Shown: in pieces, positions 1,256-38,266 of the stretch
How the letters are laid out: every line of letters begins with the position of its first letter
How positions within the stretch are numbered: position 1 is the first letter of the stretch
Source: Halarcobacter sp.
GTDB lineage: Bacteria; Campylobacterota; Campylobacteria; Campylobacterales; Arcobacteraceae
Reading direction: 5' to 3'
Assembly (NCBI GenBank): GCA_963676565.1
Contig: OY781089.1
Span: forward strand, 32,001 to 96,000
Length of the DNA: 64,000 nucleotides
Notes under the pieces: generated by a model
Told to the model about the DNA's origin: nothing
What the model saw: only the letters and a program-made list of their open reading frames with translations
The model's database searches: none
Position numbers and translations under genes: made by a program

Positions 1256-1768
1256 GTGGGAAATCTAATTTCTACAAAAAATTCAGATTATGATTTACAA
1301 ATAGCAACAGTTGAAGATTCGCAATTAATTGTAACTTTCATGAAAAAACTTGGTAAATATCAAAAAATGGAAGATTTGATAACAGCAACACCTGAACGTA
1401 TAAAAAGATTATTAGAAGAAAAATTAGGGGAAGCAGTTTTTGGTATTTATAAAAAAGAGATAGTTTCTTTTGCATATTTTCATCAAAAAAGTTCCGCTTT
1501 TTCTGGTCGAAAAGGAGTTTATATTGATGCTTTTTTTATAGAAGATCATGTAAGGGGGAAAGGTTTAGGGGAAATTATGTTTCATTATCTTTCAAAGTAT
1601 TCTGTAGATATAGGTTGTGAATACCTAGAATGGGCTTGTTTAGATTGGAATAAATCAGCAATAAAATTTTATGAAAAACAAGGAGCTTATTGCATAGATA
1701 ATTTAAGACTCTATCGATTATCTCCAGATACATTATTTTTAAATTCTAAAAATTTTGTGTCAAACTAA
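1256..1768 (+). CDS. GNAT N-acetyltransferase (SSAT/diamine acetyltransferase-like)
   Basis: Acetyl-CoA motif VRGKGLG; YIDAFFI and EWACLDWNKSAIKFYEKQGA are typical of SSAT-like GNATs. Confidence 0.8.
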   Translation: MGNLISTKNSDYDLQIATVEDSQLIVTFMKKLGKYQKMEDLITATPERIKRLLEEKLGEAVFGIYKKEIVSFAYFHQKSSAFSGRKGVYIDAFFIEDHVRGKGLGEIMFHYLSKYSVDIGCEYLEWACLDWNKSAIKFYEKQGAYCIDNLRLYRLSPDTLFLNSKNFVSN

Positions 1769-1807
1769 AATAATAAATATAAATTAAATTTAAAAAAAGG
1801 AAAATAA

Positions 1808-3199
1808 ATGAGTACAATAGAAGTAACATCACCATTTGATGGAAAAGTAGTAGGAAGTGTACCTTTTACAGATGTAGAAGGTGTTCAAAAAGCAATTGAT
1901 ACTGCTTATGAAAAGTTTTTAGATAAAGATAACTGGATTCCTAAGCATAAAAGAATAGAAATCTTAGAAAACTTAATGGGTATTATGTCTTCTCAGGTTG
2001 AAGAATTAACTATCCTTTGTGCTTCTGAAGGTGGTAAACCTTACATGGATTCTAAAGTTGAAATTCAAAGAGCTATCAATGGTGTTAAAATCGCTATTGA
2101 GCAAATTGGTGCTATTGAAGGTCAAGAAATTGCTATGGGTCATACTGCTTCATCTGCAAACAGAATGGCTTATACTATGAAAGAACCTATTGGGGTTGTT
2201 GCTGCAATATCAGCATTTAACCACCCATTTAACTTAGCTATTCACCAAGTAATCCCAGCTATTGCTGTTGGTTGTCCTGTTATTATCAGACCTGCAACTC
2301 AAACTCCTATGTCTGCTGTTAAATTAGTTGAATTATTAAAAGAAGCTGGTTTACCTGAAGGTTGGGCTCAAGCTGTTGTTTGTGACAGAGCTGGAGGAGA
2401 GTTATTAGTTACATCTCCAAAAACTGCTTTCTTTACATTTATTGGTTCTGGACCTGTTGGATGGTATTTAAATTCTAAGGCATCTCCTGGAACTAGATCT
2501 GCTTTAGAGCATGGTGGAGTTGCTCCTGTTATTGTTGAGCCTGATGCTGATATTGAAGCTATGATTCCTGATTTAGGAAAAGGTGGTTTTTATCATGCTG
2601 GTCAAGTTTGTGTATCAGTTCAAAGAATCTTTGTTCACGAATCAATTGCAGACGATATTGCAAACAGATTAGCTGATTATGCTAAGAACTTAGTTGTTGG
2701 AGATCAATTAGATCCTAAAACTGAGGTTGGTCCACTAATTAACCACAACGAAGTTAACAGAGTTGAAGAGTGGGTTAATGAAGCTGTTGAAAAAGGTGGA
2801 AAAATTTTAACTGGTGGAAAAAGAATTTCTGATTCTTTATATGAGCCAACAGTTATTGTTAATCCTTCTGACGATGCTATTATTTCACAAAAAGAGATTT
2901 TTGGTCCTGTAGTTGTTGTTTATTCATACAAAACTTTAGATGAGGCTATCAACAGAGCTAATCAACTTGATGTTTCATTCCAAGCTGCTGTATTTACTAA
3001 GAACATTGACACTGCACTTAAAGCTGTTAAGAGATTAAATGGTACTGCTGTTATGGTTAACGACCATACTGCATTTAGAGTTGACTGGATGCCTTTTGGT
3101 GGTGCTAAAACTTCTGGTTTAGGTTTAGGTGGTATCCCTGATTCTATGAACGAAATGCAAAACCAAAAGCTTATGGTTATTAAATCTAGCGCTTTATAA
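1808..3199 (+). CDS. NAD(P)-dependent aldehyde dehydrogenase (LEHGG subgroup, ALDH21/SSADH-like)
   Basis: AFNHP, FIGS, catalytic Glu in LEHGG, catalytic Cys in GQVCVS, EIFGP, PFGG. Confidence 0.9.
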   Translation: MSTIEVTSPFDGKVVGSVPFTDVEGVQKAIDTAYEKFLDKDNWIPKHKRIEILENLMGIMSSQVEELTILCASEGGKPYMDSKVEIQRAINGVKIAIEQIGAIEGQEIAMGHTASSANRMAYTMKEPIGVVAAISAFNHPFNLAIHQVIPAIAVGCPVIIRPATQTPMSAVKLVELLKEAGLPEGWAQAVVCDRAGGELLVTSPKTAFFTFIGSGPVGWYLNSKASPGTRSALEHGGVAPVIVEPDADIEAMIPDLGKGGFYHAGQVCVSVQRIFVHESIADDIANRLADYAKNLVVGDQLDPKTEVGPLINHNEVNRVEEWVNEAVEKGGKILTGGKRISDSLYEPTVIVNPSDDAIISQKEIFGPVVVVYSYKTLDEAINRANQLDVSFQAAVFTKNIDTALKAVKRLNGTAVMVNDHTAFRVDWMPFGGAKTSGLGLGGIPDSMNEMQNQKLMVIKSSAL

Positions 3200-33583: not shown

Positions 33584-34525
33584 TTAATCTTCAAATGCTA
33601 CTTTTTCAGCACGAGCTAATAACTCCTTAGCCCCTTGGTCAATAAATGTTTGAGCTAAATTTTTACCTAAATTTTCAAAGTTTTCAAGATCTGCAACTAT
33701 ATCTTCTTGGATATATTCACTACCATCTGGCATACCAACTATTGCTTTTACATCAATAGAGTTTTCATCTAAAATTGTTGCTTTTACTCCAATTGGAACT
33801 TGACAACCACCCTCTAATGTTCTTACAAAATCTCTTTCAATAGTTGATTCAATATGTGCATTTTTATCATGTAATACAGAAACAATATCAATAATCTCTT
33901 TATTATCTAAAGTTTCAATACCTAAAGTTGCTTGCCCCATAGATGGAATCATATCATCTGTTGAAATAGGTTTGAAATATTTTACCTCATCTTCTATTTG
34001 AAGTTTTTGTAATCCAGTTGCAGCAAGAATAATTGCATCATACTCACCAGCTTTTAATTTTGCAATTCTAGTGTTGATGTTTCCTCTTAAATCTTTTAAA
34101 ACAATATCTGGTCTTAAAAGTTTTAATTCTAATCTTCTTCTTAAACTTGTTGTTCCAACAACTGCACCATTTGGTAAATCATGAAGACCTTCATATTTTT
34201 CACTTAAAAAAGCATCCCTTGGATCAAATCTTTTTGTAACTGCAGCTAATGCAAATCCCTCTTCAAAATTAACAGGAACATCTTTTAAACTATGTACAGC
34301 TATATGAGCTTCTTTTGAAGCAAGTGCAATCTCAAGCTCTTTTGTAAATAATCCCTTACCTCCAATTTTTGCTAAAGGTACATCTAAAATCTTATCAGCT
34401 TTTGTAGAAAATGTTTTTAACTCAATCTCCATATCTGGGTAATGTTTATTTAATTCAGCTTTTATATATTCACTTTGCCATAGTGCTAATTTGCTTTTCC
34501 TTGTTGCAATTATCAATTTTTCCAT
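33584..34525 (-). CDS. hemC: Hydroxymethylbilane synthase
   Basis: ATRKSKLALWQ, GGKGLFTKE, VHSLKD, GTTSLRR, GGCQVP. Confidence 0.97.
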   Translation of the reverse strand: MEKLIIATRKSKLALWQSEYIKAELNKHYPDMEIELKTFSTKADKILDVPLAKIGGKGLFTKELEIALASKEAHIAVHSLKDVPVNFEEGFALAAVTKRFDPRDAFLSEKYEGLHDLPNGAVVGTTSLRRRLELKLLRPDIVLKDLRGNINTRIAKLKAGEYDAIILAATGLQKLQIEDEVKYFKPISTDDMIPSMGQATLGIETLDNKEIIDIVSVLHDKNAHIESTIERDFVRTLEGGCQVPIGVKATILDENSIDVKAIVGMPDGSEYIQEDIVADLENFENLGKNLAQTFIDQGAKELLARAEKVAFED

Positions 34526-34526
34526 T

Positions 34527-35363
34527 CTAATTTCCTAACATTTCATATTTTAATTTTGATTTATCTTGCTCACCATTAACAAAAATAGTTGGTGTTCCTT
34601 GAACCATCACATTATCTCCTTTAGAGATATCAGCTGATAATTCATCTCCAATTTTTTCATTTTTGATATCGTTTATTGTGTATGAAGTATTAAACTCTTT
34701 ATTGAACCCATCAATAACTTTTTGAGCATTTGTCTCTTTTGAATCAAAATATTTATCCCAATCTGCTTCATATACTTTTAATTCAATATCAGTCATCCCA
34801 TCATTTTTTGCGACTACCATAAGAGCTGATAAAGGGGCAGATGCTGGATGAATTCTTAATAATGGGAAATGATAATAATACAATGCAATACTATCTTTAT
34901 GTTTTTTTACATAATTTATTACATCAGGTAAATAATCCATACAAAAAGGGCATAAAGGGTCTGAAAATACAACTAGCTTATCTTTTGCTTTAGGATTTCC
35001 TGCAATTAATTTTTTTTCATCATAATAATCTTTAGTTAATGTTGGATTCATCAAATCTTTTAATGCCATACCTGTTTTTATATCAAAAAGTTCAGGGGCA
35101 ATAATCTCACCATTTGAAAAAACAACATCTTTTGCTTTTATCTCTTTTCCTGCCATTTTTGCATCTAAATCAATGATATATCCATACCAACCTTTTTGTG
35201 GCATCTCTTTTTTAGTATTTATTTTTACACTATTAATCTCTACTCTTTTATTTTTTGAAAATCTTTCTTTCTCAAATTTAAGTACATTATCATCAACAGT
35301 ATCATTTGCTAATAAACTTCCAAACATTAGTGCTGTTGCACCAATAACTGATATTAATTTCAT
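34527..35363 (-). CDS. Periplasmic thiol-disulfide oxidoreductase (DsbA/DsbC-like)
   Basis: Signal peptide, FSDPLCPFC, VQGTPT. Confidence 0.85.
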   Translation of the reverse strand: MKLISVIGATALMFGSLLANDTVDDNVLKFEKERFSKNKRVEINSVKINTKKEMPQKGWYGYIIDLDAKMAGKEIKAKDVVFSNGEIIAPELFDIKTGMALKDLMNPTLTKDYYDEKKLIAGNPKAKDKLVVFSDPLCPFCMDYLPDVINYVKKHKDSIALYYYHFPLLRIHPASAPLSALMVVAKNDGMTDIELKVYEADWDKYFDSKETNAQKVIDGFNKEFNTSYTINDIKNEKIGDELSADISKGDNVMVQGTPTIFVNGEQDKSKLKYEMLGN

Positions 35364-35427: not shown

Positions 35428-37476
35428 TTAAGTTTTAGTCTTAACAGTGATTTTCTTAATATGAAACAACTCTTTTGTTGTATTTAATTGACTAGAATTT
35501 AGTATATCATTTAACTGTAATTCTTTTTGAGAAGGGCTAGGATTTGCTGTTTTTTGCATATCTGCAACACAACCAGAACCAACTTCTATGTCTTCAATCA
35601 TTGAGCCTGAATCAGTATTTGTTTCTTCCAAAGTATCAGGCTTTTCATTACTTTGGAAGTTATCCTTTTTTGAAACGGGTTCCTCTTTAATAAATTCTAT
35701 TTCAATATTCTCACCAAAAATATCATATATAAAAAGTTTTAATATTCCATAATGTTTTAGTAAAAACTTTCTTTCATCACCTTGTGCATAAGAACTAATT
35801 TCAAGTTTATTATTTGAAAAGTTTTTATAAACAAAATTTTTCTCAAAGGCTTCACCTAACTCATCATCTCTCTCATAAACCTTTGCAATCAATTGTTTAT
35901 ATGCCTTTGTATTTTCATCAACTACTTCATCCCTAGCTTGAGGAATTGGTTCATAAATTGGTTCTTCTACAATTGAGTCTTCATTAATCTCTTGAATTGT
36001 TTCACTAGATATTTCTTGAACTGTTTCATTAGGTATTTCATCAGATATCTTTTGAATTGGTTCTTCAATCACCTCATTTTGTTTTTCTTCTATAGGTGCT
36101 GTGAAGCCTTCATCAAAAGGGTTTGGAAAAGGATTAGTATTTTGTTCAACAACTTCAATTGGTTGAACAGTAGGTATTGCATTTATACTATCTGTTGAAA
36201 TTGTTGTTTCATTTTCGATTTCTACAATCTCTTCAATTTCATTTTCTTCTATTTCTGCTGGAGTTTCTTCATTTAAGGCTTTTTTATTTTCCATAAATGT
36301 TTCATCAACTTTTACTACCACATCATCATAGGCATGGTTAATATCATTATGTGCATGTTCTACAACTTTTTCTTTAGAGATTACATCTTTAATTACAGGT
36401 TTAACCTCAATATCTTGAACTTGATTTATAATCTCATCAATAGTTTTTAAATTTGTTGCTTCAACCATTTTTGATAAAGTTAAAATCAAAACAAATCCAC
36501 CATCTGAATTTATTGCTAATAGATGTTTTGCATCACTTAGTATTCTAAAGAATCTATCAAATAAAAGAATATTAAATTTTGCATCTTTTTCAAGCATTTT
36601 TTGTTTTAAATATATTGTCATCTCATCACAAACTTGTGATATCTCATAGTTTTCTAATTCTTGTACTAATTTAGTGAAATCTTGTTTTCTTAATATAGTG
36701 TCAAAAAGTTCATCCATAAGTTTGGGTTCAATAAGTCCCAACATATCAACAACAGCAGTTGTTGTAATCTTACCCTTTGAAAAGATTATTGCTTGGTCTA
36801 ATAAAGTTAAGGTATCCCTTAAACTTCCTTGTCCTGTTCTTGATAATATCTCTAAAGCATCAGTTTCAAAATCAATATTTTCTTCATTTAAAATATGTGA
36901 TAAATGATGCATAACATCAGAGTTTGCAATTTTATTAAATCTAAAATGTTGAGTTCTACTTAAAATAGTTGCTGGAAGTTTAAGTGGATCTGTTGTTGCA
37001 AGTATAAACTTTACAAACCCTGGAGGTTCTTCTAAAGTTTTAAGTAAGGCATTAAATGCTTGAGTTGTAAGCATATGAACCTCATCGATTATAAAGACTT
37101 TAAATCGGGCACTACTTGGTTTATATTTCGTATGTTCAATTAAATCTTTAATATCATCAATACCCCTATTTGATGCGGCATCCATCTCTATAATATCAAG
37201 GTGTTTGTTTGTATTTGCACTTTGACAATTTTCACACACTTCACAAGGTCTTGATGTAGGTCCATTTGAACACAATAGTGCCTTTGCCATAATTCTAGCA
37301 GTAGAGGTTTTACCACTTCCCCTTAGTCCACTAAAAAGATAGGCATGGGATAATCTACTTGAATCTAAAGCTAAAGACAAAGTTTGAGAGATTGTTGTTT
37401 GTCCAACTAAGTCTTCAAATCTTTTTGGTCTATATTTTAATGCTAACACCCTATTCTCTACAATTTTTTCATCCAT
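35428..37476 (-). CDS. dnaX: DNA polymerase III subunit gamma/tau
   Basis: LALKYRP, Walker A GLRGSGKT, Zn cysteines, DEVHML; long acidic linker. Confidence 0.96.
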   Translation of the reverse strand: MDEKIVENRVLALKYRPKRFEDLVGQTTISQTLSLALDSSRLSHAYLFSGLRGSGKTSTARIMAKALLCSNGPTSRPCEVCENCQSANTNKHLDIIEMDAASNRGIDDIKDLIEHTKYKPSSARFKVFIIDEVHMLTTQAFNALLKTLEEPPGFVKFILATTDPLKLPATILSRTQHFRFNKIANSDVMHHLSHILNEENIDFETDALEILSRTGQGSLRDTLTLLDQAIIFSKGKITTTAVVDMLGLIEPKLMDELFDTILRKQDFTKLVQELENYEISQVCDEMTIYLKQKMLEKDAKFNILLFDRFFRILSDAKHLLAINSDGGFVLILTLSKMVEATNLKTIDEIINQVQDIEVKPVIKDVISKEKVVEHAHNDINHAYDDVVVKVDETFMENKKALNEETPAEIEENEIEEIVEIENETTISTDSINAIPTVQPIEVVEQNTNPFPNPFDEGFTAPIEEKQNEVIEEPIQKISDEIPNETVQEISSETIQEINEDSIVEEPIYEPIPQARDEVVDENTKAYKQLIAKVYERDDELGEAFEKNFVYKNFSNNKLEISSYAQGDERKFLLKHYGILKLFIYDIFGENIEIEFIKEEPVSKKDNFQSNEKPDTLEETNTDSGSMIEDIEVGSGCVADMQKTANPSPSQKELQLNDILNSSQLNTTKELFHIKKITVKTKT
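35625..35686 (-). other. Programmed -1 ribosomal frameshift cassette in dnaX
   Basis: GAGG (35685-82), 10 nt, in-frame A AAA AAG (35671-65), 5 nt, 11-bp stem CTTCCAAAGTA/TACTTTGGAAG; the -1 frame reads AAA AAA GGA TAA. Confidence 0.75.
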
Positions 37477-38266
37477 TAATATCCCTTACTTTTATCTTTC
37501 CACCAATTGTATATTTATCTAATATTAAATTAACCATATTTAAATTTATATCTTTTGTATAATAAAGTTTGATATCTAAATCCCCTTTATTAATATGTCC
37601 CTTTTTAGAGCTTAAATCTTCAAGCCTTTTTGCTATTGCAAAACCAGTCTCGATTAAATTAATATCTTTACCCATATAATCTTTTATAATATCTGCAACT
37701 AATGGGTAGTGAGTACAACCTAAAACAATTGTATCAACACCATTTTTTTTCATAGGCTCTAACCAGTTTTTTAACATTTCATGTGTTTTACTATCTTCAA
37801 TCATTCCATTTTCAATTTTCTCAACTAAACCTGGACATGCTTGTTCAAATAATCTTATCTCTTTTAAAATAGCTAAATCATTAAGCAAACTTTGGTATTT
37901 TTGCCCCTTTAATGTAGCACTTGTCGCTAGAACTCCTACACTATTACTTCTTGTAATATTAATTGCAGGTTTGATACCAGGTTCAGTTCCAATAACTATT
38001 AAATCTTTAAACTTCATTCTAAGTTCTTTTACAGCAGCTGATGTAGCTGTATTACATGCAATAATTAAAGCTTCAATGTTATGATTTTTTATCAAATATT
38101 TAGTAATAGATAAAGAGTGTTTTAAAATCTCTTCTTTACTCTTTTCTCCATAGGGAGCATATTCAGTATCAGCTATATAAAAAATTTCAGCCCCTTTAAA
38201 TAGCTTTGAAATCTCTTTTACAACTGTTAAACCACCAAGACCTGAATCAAAAATCCCAACTTTCAA
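37469..38266 (-). CDS. murI: Glutamate racemase
   Basis: FDSGLGG, ACNTA, GCTHY. Confidence 0.96.
   Translation of the reverse strand: MKVGIFDSGLGGLTVVKEISKLFKGAEIFYIADTEYAPYGEKSKEEILKHSLSITKYLIKNHNIEALIIACNTATSAAVKELRMKFKDLIVIGTEPGIKPAINITRSNSVGVLATSATLKGQKYQSLLNDLAILKEIRLFEQACPGLVEKIENGMIEDSKTHEMLKNWLEPMKKNGVDTIVLGCTHYPLVADIIKDYMGKDINLIETGFAIAKRLEDLSSKKGHINKGDLDIKLYYTKDINLNMVNLILDKYTIGGKIKVRDING

Follow-up and report, generated by a model that had tools for sequence, protein, structure and literature searches.

The dnaX gene of Halarcobacter sp. (Arcobacteraceae, Campylobacterota) lies on the minus strand of the 64,000-nt stretch analysed here (contig OY781089.1 of GenBank assembly GCA_963676565.1, positions 32,001 to 96,000; hereafter the window), and carries close to its 3' end a short cassette at which ribosomes probably undergo programmed -1 frameshifting of the Escherichia coli dnaX type. 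A reading of the sequence alone had proposed its elements, namely a Shine-Dalgarno (SD)-like tetramer, a slippery heptamer A_AAA_AAG, a stem-loop and a -1 stop, and each of them was located on the minus strand (Table 1). The product sizes of 682 and 605 aa given by the same reading follow from the open reading frame (ORF) and from the -1 stop. Support for the proposed frameshift comes chiefly from relatives, where heptamer, -1 stop and stem are kept together in 10 of 25 congeners with compensatory changes in the stem, and from the tRNA set, in which tRNA-Lys(UUU) is the sole lysine tRNA.

The dnaX cassette and its conservation in the genus

The genome contains one full copy of dnaX, which in the window is a single ORF, and its product begins with a clamp-loader ATPase module, followed by an acidic linker, a folded domain in the C-terminal part and a tail. 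Pfam matches (DNA_pol3_delta2, 1.5e-41; DNAX_ATPase_lid, 1.2e-18) cover residues 26-235 only, with no match over the C-terminal 450 residues. The heptamer is in phase, with the codon for S602 ending at 35671, that for K603 at 35670-35668 and that for K604 at 35667-35665, and the -1 frame reads AAA AAA GGA TAA. ViennaRNA places the stem within the minimum-energy fold, where it also makes up the whole centroid structure (-12.8 kcal/mol). The 3' end of the 16S rRNA of this genome reads ...GGATCACCTCCTTT and contains CCTCC, and the SD-like GAGG sits inside the conserved Lys-Glu-Glu codons that close the folded domain, of which it may be a by-product.

Table 1. Positions in the window of dnaX, of the cassette elements and of the C-terminal parts of the product
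Feature	Position	Strand	Basis
dnaX ORF, 682 aa, tau-like full-length product	35428..37476	minus	ORF list
C-terminal folded domain, DnaX residues ~521-597, DnaA-domain-I-like	35686..35916	minus	AlphaFold2
SD-like GAGG, 10 nt 5' of heptamer	35682..35685	minus	sequence reading
10-nt spacer, GAGG to heptamer	35681-35672	minus	
Slippery heptamer A_AAA_AAG, 0 frame, S602-K603-K604	35665..35671	minus	
Spacer GATAA, 5 nt	35664-35660	minus	
-1 frame stop TAA, after the single sense codon GGA; would close the 605-aa product	35660..35662	minus	
Candidate stimulatory hairpin, 11-bp stem and 13-nt loop, 5 nt past heptamer	35625..35659	minus	
Stem 5' arm, CTTCCAAAGTA	35659-35649	minus	
13-nt loop	35648-35636	minus	
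Stem 3' arm, TACTTTGGAAG, perfect complement of the 5' arm, 11 bp	35635-35625	minus	
0-frame-only segment, residues 605-682: low-confidence linker, GSMIEDIEVGSGCVADMQK, two short helices	35431..35664	minus	

Aragorn, run on the whole genome, found 49 tRNA genes, among them two for tRNA-Lys(UUU) and none for a Lys CUU isoacceptor, such that AAA and AAG would both be read by one species. The part of Atkins 2016 (PMC5009743) consulted links the strong tendency of A_AAA_AAG to slip in E. coli to a sole tRNA-Lys that pairs with AAA more strongly than with AAG. The tRNA complement of the window's genome is small more generally, with single U34 tRNAs for Pro, Ala, Gly and Lys, and includes a tRNA-Sec.

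We propose that a ribosome with A_AAA_AAG in its P and A sites would be slowed by the hairpin 5 nt downstream, at the mRNA entrance. The sole tRNA-Lys (UUU) would pair weakly with AAG, the tRNAs would re-pair on AAA AAA, and the ribosome would then read GGA and stop at TAA. Two products would result, a 682-aa and a 605-aa DnaX; nothing of the DnaA-domain-I-like domain would be missing from the shorter, which would also retain the acidic linker and the ATPase module. The tail would be the handle of full-length DnaX on the alpha subunit of DNA polymerase III (Pol III), and clamp loaders could mix subunits that hold the polymerase with subunits that do not, like tau and gamma in E. coli. The elements, their conservation and covariation, the tRNA set and the domain boundary are observed; the slippage itself, its efficiency and the partner of the tail are inferred.

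The congener set comprised 25 genomes of the genus, that of the window included. A dnaX gene was found in all 25, and the closest DnaE and DnaX homologues carry the name Halarcobacter. The sequence-only reading had put forward an alignment of dnaX from Arcobacteraceae as a check, and within the genus such a comparison supports the cassette: in every one of the ten congeners with an in-frame A_AAA_AAG, the window's genome among them, a single sense codon separates the slip from the -1 stop, and a 9-12-bp stem begins 4-7 nt downstream of the heptamer. The 0-frame dipeptide after the heptamer varies (DN, YN, SD, HN, SN, DE), yet T(A/G)A is always kept in the -1 frame. When the ten sequences were aligned over 11 stem pairs (110 cells), 94.5% of the cells were paired, compared with 40-56% when the 3' partners were slid by 1-3 columns. 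Three of the 11 pairs show compensatory change on both sides (CG/UA at 29-78, GC/AU at 37-70, and five CG to five UA at 38-69), and G-U was seen in two pairs. At pair 38-69 a synonymous Ser codon change is coupled to a Thr/Ala replacement, a combination that protein constraint is hard-pressed to explain. The 3' arm carries the rare Leu codon TTG in 10/10 heptamer congeners (7.0 per 1000 codons, TTA 55.7; these and later codon frequencies are those of the window's genome), and the second Lys of the heptamer is the rarer AAG in all ten (11.6 against 82.5 per 1000). The conservation of TTG, AAG and the -1 stop fits selection on the RNA. Locus L064, from another genus, combines heptamer and -1 stop at this boundary with an unrelated, GC-rich stem that lies 6 nt downstream (-19.6 kcal/mol).

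Chance combined with protein constraint could in principle give an ordinary Lys-Lys pair in a lysine-rich, AT-rich genome (28% G+C), with background-level shifting and no role, which we consider unlikely. A crude set of 2803 ORFs from this genome contains 615 in-frame A_AAA_AAG heptamers, 201 of them with a -1 stop no more than two extra codons on, and a -1 stop lies equally near at 24% of random coding positions. A stem of at least 9 bp beginning 4-8 nt downstream accompanies 24 of the 615, and an SD-like tetramer at -16 to -5 likewise 24. All three features occur together in dnaX only, at an expectation under independence of ~0.3 full cassettes and by criteria set post hoc. The hairpin is AU-rich and modest in energy, and its 91-nt context gives z = -1.37, with 20 of 200 shuffles folding equally well. 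Rfam assigned the cassette to no family at E ≤ 10; the four matches in the 501 nt searched are all chance snoRNA or miRNA matches elsewhere than the cassette. The SD-like element claimed by the sequence-only reading is present in the window, but GAGG or AGGAG 8-11 nt upstream occurs in only 6/10 heptamer congeners and is absent in the other four. The ten heptamer sequences are kin, so that their counts overstate independence, and the stem arms also code for conserved residues (Phe-Gln-Ser, Leu-Glu). Raw RNA reads on dnaX numbered 0 in runs X20 and X23, which is no test either way; the RNA runs were mostly oligo-dT or poly-A libraries labelled as another organism. These points weigh against a functional site, and the window sequence by itself makes no convincing case against chance, whereas the comparison with relatives makes one. 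Compensatory stem changes pair synonymous with non-synonymous substitutions, rare AAG and TTG are invariant, the -1 stop outlasts six different dipeptides, and L064 has an unrelated stem at the same place. In the family-wide set described below, moreover, nearly every tail-bearing locus carries a candidate signal at this boundary, and 20 loci need a change of frame to reach a tail that is under selection.

The ORF immediately upstream overlaps dnaX by 8 nt (37469-38266, minus) and resembles what we take to be a glutamate racemase. Downstream (33584-35363, minus) lie what are presumably a thioredoxin-fold-like ORF with a CPFC motif and a porphobilinogen deaminase-like ORF.

Position of the site between the last folded domain and the tail

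AlphaFold2 was run on the last 175 residues of DnaX with a 56-row alignment thinned from 75 in-frame loci. It returned one confident domain with secondary structure H H E E H H E (residues 14-90 of the piece), with a predicted local distance difference test (pLDDT) score of 90-94 in the ten-residue blocks across residues 21-90. Residues 95-128 are of low confidence and are followed by two short helices, 141-152 and 155-164, at pLDDT 54-62. The best structural match of the domain is DnaA domain I (4tps_B; Z 9.5, root-mean-square deviation 2.4 Å over 79 residues), with a Foldseek E of 1.9e-3; no Foldseek match against the PDB reached E ≤ 0.001. The C-terminal chains of E. coli tau (5fku_E, 2aya) appear at Foldseek E ~0.4 and are not in the best 50 VIA-align rows, and likeness to tau domain V is therefore not claimed.

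K603-K604 correspond to residues 96-97 of the piece and lie 6 residues beyond the final strand predicted with confidence, which closes the last folded domain. The 605-aa form would accordingly keep every folded part of DnaX and lose 78 residues, that is the linker and the conserved two-helix tail, and the sequence-only reading was right that only the terminal segment would be lost. The tail is conserved across the family, also at loci where it lies in the +1 frame. The E. coli arrangement, in which the site follows domain III and the short form is without the helicase- and polymerase-binding domains, is not what we find here, where the site lies at codon 603 of 682, past the last folded domain. 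Unlike E. coli gamma, the short product keeps its last folded domain, which adds to the points against our reading in that the functional analogy may fail.

The position of the hairpin, 12 codons past the end of the folded domain, would also suit some other role, such as a pause for domain folding, mRNA stability or an RNase site, with the heptamer incidental. Covariation tells that the helix is selected and leaves the reason aside, but another role would leave unexplained the invariant heptamer with its rare AAG, the 5-6-nt spacing and the conserved -1 stop. Relatives without the hairpin, moreover, have A9-A12 runs or a +1 motif there instead. We therefore hold such a role to be improbable, more so than chance, and a terminator function is not among the candidates, since no T-run follows the stem and the hairpin is thus not an intrinsic terminator.

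The extreme C-terminus of E. coli tau is the contact with alpha, and the tau-alpha complex has already been solved. For the present protein, the sequence-only reading had related the lost segment to polymerase alpha binding, and we predicted the complex of the 76-residue tail with residues 620-1188 of its own DnaE, using alignments of 55 of 97 tails and of 35 DnaE rows. The interface score ipSAE was 0.52 (0.51, 0.52 and 0.52 in three runs), compared with 0.00 for the best of three controls, and the runs share at least 43% of their contacts, at a partner pLDDT of ~50. The mark applied to ipSAE is reached by 116 of 157 solved complexes and by 2 of 215 mismatched pairs, although scores at or below 0.60 include only 18 of those solved complexes, plus both of the mismatches that passed. 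The score is thus weak and the partner fold uncertain, which again counts against our reading, and part of the score may be memory of likeness, given the solved tau-alpha complex. In E. coli, binding to Pol III alpha is a property of tau that gamma does not share, as stated in the parts of PMC4756838 and PMC11470591 consulted. We regard alpha binding as the most likely function of the tail, with an about even chance of being correct.

Other candidate signals at the same boundary in Arcobacteraceae

The family search used 151 genomes drawn evenly from the larger group. We analysed 105 dnaX loci, 25 from congeners and 80 from the 126 genomes outside the genus; these 80 were hand-picked so that every genus was represented at least once and long contigs were favoured, and are a non-random sample. 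An in-frame heptamer is present in 14 loci and a run of A9-A12 in 21. A third motif, AAG GAN NNN NCC N, occurs with the tail in frame in 40 loci and with the tail in the +1 frame in 20, and accounts for 60 of the 61 tail-bearing loci outside the heptamer and A-run classes once one broken locus (L109) is set aside. One locus (L101) is in frame with no recognised signal. The tail was not found in eight loci by tblastn with the tail of this genome; L072 and L108 end at a contig edge, and the rest come from genera g9, g22 and g6. Altogether, 95 of 97 tail-bearing loci have a candidate recoding signal at the boundary.

L109 (genome G048) is broken upstream and lies on a 3.4-kb contig. Its tail is two frames off the N-terminal part, whose frame stops at ~464 aa, and its heptamer region, in the tail's own frame, matches that of L063, a congener of L109. 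Most likely the assembly is wrong here or the gene copy is broken.

The 15 congeners without the heptamer divide into one A-run locus (L026), which has an in-frame run of ten A's and other-frame stops 2 and 3 codons off, and 14 with the tail in the +1 frame. In these 14 the 0 frame stops 3-5 codons past the motif and holds 6-19 stops across the tail. Over their 91 pairs the tail frame shows 1492 synonymous and 1257 non-synonymous codon differences, compared with 278/2587 and 89/2743 in the two other frames, and the +1-frame tail is, from these counts, still under protein-level selection. The loci of this type are L011-L020 and L022-L025 among congeners, and L052, L056, L062, L068, L083 and L095 in other genera. 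The N-terminal parts of L024 and L025 are identical, and L025 has ~26 extra codons in its +1-frame linker, between motif and tail. Since different candidate signals occupy this boundary in the remaining congeners and in other genera, DnaX with and DnaX without the tail both appear to be selected.

The A9-A12 loci have stops near in both alternative frames and no consistent hairpin, the pattern described for Thermus dnaX in the part of PMC5009743 consulted, and it could be asked whether RNA-polymerase slippage on the A run also makes the short product in the window. The run before the G is only six A's long there and the +1 stop 21 codons away, so that the Thermus-type combination of ~9 or more A's with stops near in both other frames is absent; efficient slippage needs ~8-9 or more A's according to the parts of PMC5009743 and PMC3711429 consulted. 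The conserved hairpin at 5 nt and the stop near only in the -1 frame fit a ribosomal shift. Contigs from two RNA runs, X1 (265 nt, depth 3.4, 11 differences) and X4 (569 nt, 2 differences), span the site without an indel, although contigs are blind to slippage, rare variants being invisible in them. We judge polymerase slippage in the window to be very improbable, the least probable of the explanations considered here, and retain a ribosomal -1 shift as the preferred reading.

The third motif looks like a candidate +1 site. Its SD-like part, AAAGGA(A/G)G, is complementary to the 16S rRNA 3' end of this genome, ...CCTCCTTT, and NCC lies 2 nt past it in a manual alignment to the anti-SD. The putative shift codon in the 60 loci is CCC in 28, GCC in 27 and TCC in 5. 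The genome of the window has single U34 tRNAs for Pro, Ala and UCN Ser codons, so that NCC would be read by weak U-C wobble, whereas a tRNA that has moved by +1 onto CCN would pair there at two or three positions. NCC is followed in the 0 frame by a stop (L095), by CGN, UCC or ACC, or in some genera by CAN; in this genome CGC and CGG each occur at 0.1 per 1000 codons, CGA at 0.8, CCC at 1.3, UCC at 1.5, ACC at 3.0 and GCC at 4.0. In-frame AAG GAN NNN NCC occurs 6 times in the 1,008,532 codons of this genome.

In loci with the tail in frame, a +1 stop lies within 4 codons in 37 of 40, against a background of 42%, which suggests that the motif is there a +1 route to the short product. Examples of such +1 endings are Pro-Pro-Tyr-stop and Pro-Gly-stop, and the loci are L038-L051, L053-L055, L057-L061, L080-L082, L084-L087, L090-L091, L093-L094, L096-L097, L102-L103 and L110-L112. 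In L102 and L103 (genus g15) heptamer and +1 motif overlap, A AAA AAG GAA AAT CCC C; both were classed with the +1 motif because their -1 stop is 15-26 codons off and their +1 stop 2 codons off. Where the +1 frame encodes the tail, a 0-frame stop lies 0-8 codons past NCC in 20/20 loci. The two arrangements can differ by a single base: L083, compared with its close kin L082 and L084, has one extra base just 3' of GCC_C GGA TAA, and with this base the +1 stop is lost and the tail comes to lie in the +1 frame.

A quick tree built from DnaX residues 1-360, thus from one protein and with an arbitrary root, requires at least 21 changes of class (the least possible being 6), and 7 changes for the +1 class, at least 5 of them forced by well-supported branches. 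Single-base indels have become fixed after the motif repeatedly, with the tail kept under selection on each occasion, as would be expected if the motif already promotes substantial +1 shifting; the same argument is made for -1 dnaX sites in the part of Atkins 2016 (PMC5009743) consulted. On balance we favour the view that the boundary is a recoding hotspot in Arcobacteraceae, where a -1 heptamer with hairpin, A9-A12 slippage and a prfB-like +1 site would swap over short distances, in both polarities. On the same view, and with the same modest preference, 40 loci would give the short form by a +1 shift, and 20 loci, of at least 5 origins, would need one for the full-length protein.

An independent start of the +1-frame tail was considered and rejected as a general mechanism because the post-motif codon is not always start-like: it is ATT, ATC, ATG or GTG in 10 of the 14 congeners, ACC in four, and AAC or CGC in other genera, at 0-2 nt from the SD-like motif. 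The tail may also start at the conserved Met of GSM. In L012, L015 and other two-frame congeners, GGA(A/G)G and a CCUCC 3 nt later could form a 5-bp mini-hairpin, so that a mimic of the anti-SD would be present in the mRNA itself; the two parts are fully complementary in L015 (GGAGG AUG CCUCC). In the window itself, positions 35677-35688 (minus) read AAA GAG GAA CCC G and align with the relatives' +1 motif (SD-like, 2 nt, CCC_N), and the +1 frame after them is open for more than 20 codons. The GAGG of the window may be a relic of that motif.

Matching the +1-frame tail ORF of L012 against longer proteins gave at least 120 matches, none more than 89% identical among the matches listed, and hence no joined product of this gene is on record. 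With no joined L012 product in public proteins (one case checked), automatic annotation of the two-frame genomes probably yields a truncated DnaX. In the window's genome prfB (RF2), of 365 aa, is a single uninterrupted ORF (1408..2505, minus, of L135, G000:C1:1055589-1058915), and thus provides no in-genome precedent for +1 shifting.

Order-wide, the last 174 residues were used as query against 151 sampled genomes and matched in 138; domain and tail lie in one frame wherever the whole query aligns. Among three split matches checked outside the family, none had its two parts in different frames, and one match contains TGA. In 20 regions picked from 14 other families, A9-A10 follows shortly after the domain in L118, L119 and L130 and lies deeper in the linker in L121 and L131, in-frame A_AAA_AAG occurs in L120 and L124, and the AAG GAN NNN NCC motif was not seen. 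As Lys-rich linkers in AT-rich genomes favour A runs, nothing is concluded from those of other families.

Relation to known recoding systems

The closest parallel to the cassette is E. coli dnaX, which, by the parts of PMC5009743 and PMC3711429 consulted, shares the gene, the heptamer, a -1 stop one codon on, a ~11-bp 3' stem a few nt on, an SD-like element 10 nt upstream and a sole tRNA-Lys(UUU). It differs from the present case, apart from the cut point, in that the SD here is not conserved, the stem is AU-rich and Rfam gives no match. Thermus thermophilus dnaX, where A9 directs transcriptional slippage, resembles the A-run class of the family; the window has a hairpin in addition to its short run, and the boundary is near the C-terminus and not after domain III. 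In Caulobacter crescentus a shorter DnaX also comes from the same gene (PMC5009743, as far as consulted; bioRxiv 10.1101/2022.11.10.516041), but by proteolysis of tau, a post-translational route with no recoding signal.

Both -1 frameshifting in enterobacterial-type dnaX and A9 slippage in Thermus are described in the consulted parts of PMC5009743 and PMC3711429, and two-ORF dnaX has been reported for 17 genes in 12 genera, with a -1 offset and mostly with poly-A (Antonov 2013, PMC3711429, main text). The two-ORF genes are matched in the family by the 20 loci, 14 of them congeners, that stop early and have the C-terminal part in another frame. In these relatives, however, the second frame is +1, no homopolymer is present and the context is AAG GAN NNN NCC N, while the window holds a single ORF. 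Atkins 2016 (PMC5009743, in the part consulted) notes that a single-nucleotide difference is enough to exchange the product made by ordinary reading for the one that depends on a shift, and L083 compared with L082 and L084 displays such a swap directly. The +1 site of prfB, with its SD-like element 3 nt before CUU_UGA_C, is the nearest likeness of the relatives' motif, where the SD-like element lies 2 nt before a codon whose tRNA could re-pair at +1 and a stop or very rare codon follows. The gene is another one, however, with no evident autoregulation, NCC replaces CUU and the A-site codon is usually a rare sense codon.

Our literature search found no paper that links dnaX, or frameshifting in general, to Arcobacter, Halarcobacter, Arcobacteraceae, Campylobacterota or Epsilonproteobacteria, in agreement with the sequence-only reading, which knew of no such description in Campylobacterota. 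The main text of Antonov 2013 (PMC3711429), as far as consulted, does not mention Arcobacter or Campylobacter, its list of genera being in a supplement outside the check. For a +1 frameshift in dnaX no mention was found in the consulted parts of PMC5009743 and PMC3711429, a weak test since '+1' is unsearchable as a term. The cassette would be a variant of known dnaX recoding; greater novelty lies in the family-wide picture, drawn entirely from sequence comparison, and above all in the candidate +1 form.

Recoding in dnaX is the textbook example of how a cell sets the proportions of two replisome subunits. In the present gene this principle seems to operate at a different cut point, where a 78-residue tail is removed and all folded domains are kept. 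If so, a tau without its tail would be the equivalent of gamma with every folded domain, and the tail would be the only part that must differ between the two products, most simply by holding the polymerase. Relatives appear to reach the same split by a -1 shift, an A run or a +1 shift of either polarity. If this is true, it would include the first +1 frameshift in dnaX and would offer a natural series of interchangeable recoding signals for comparison. It would also be unusually direct evidence that selection keeps the two-product output and not one mechanism.

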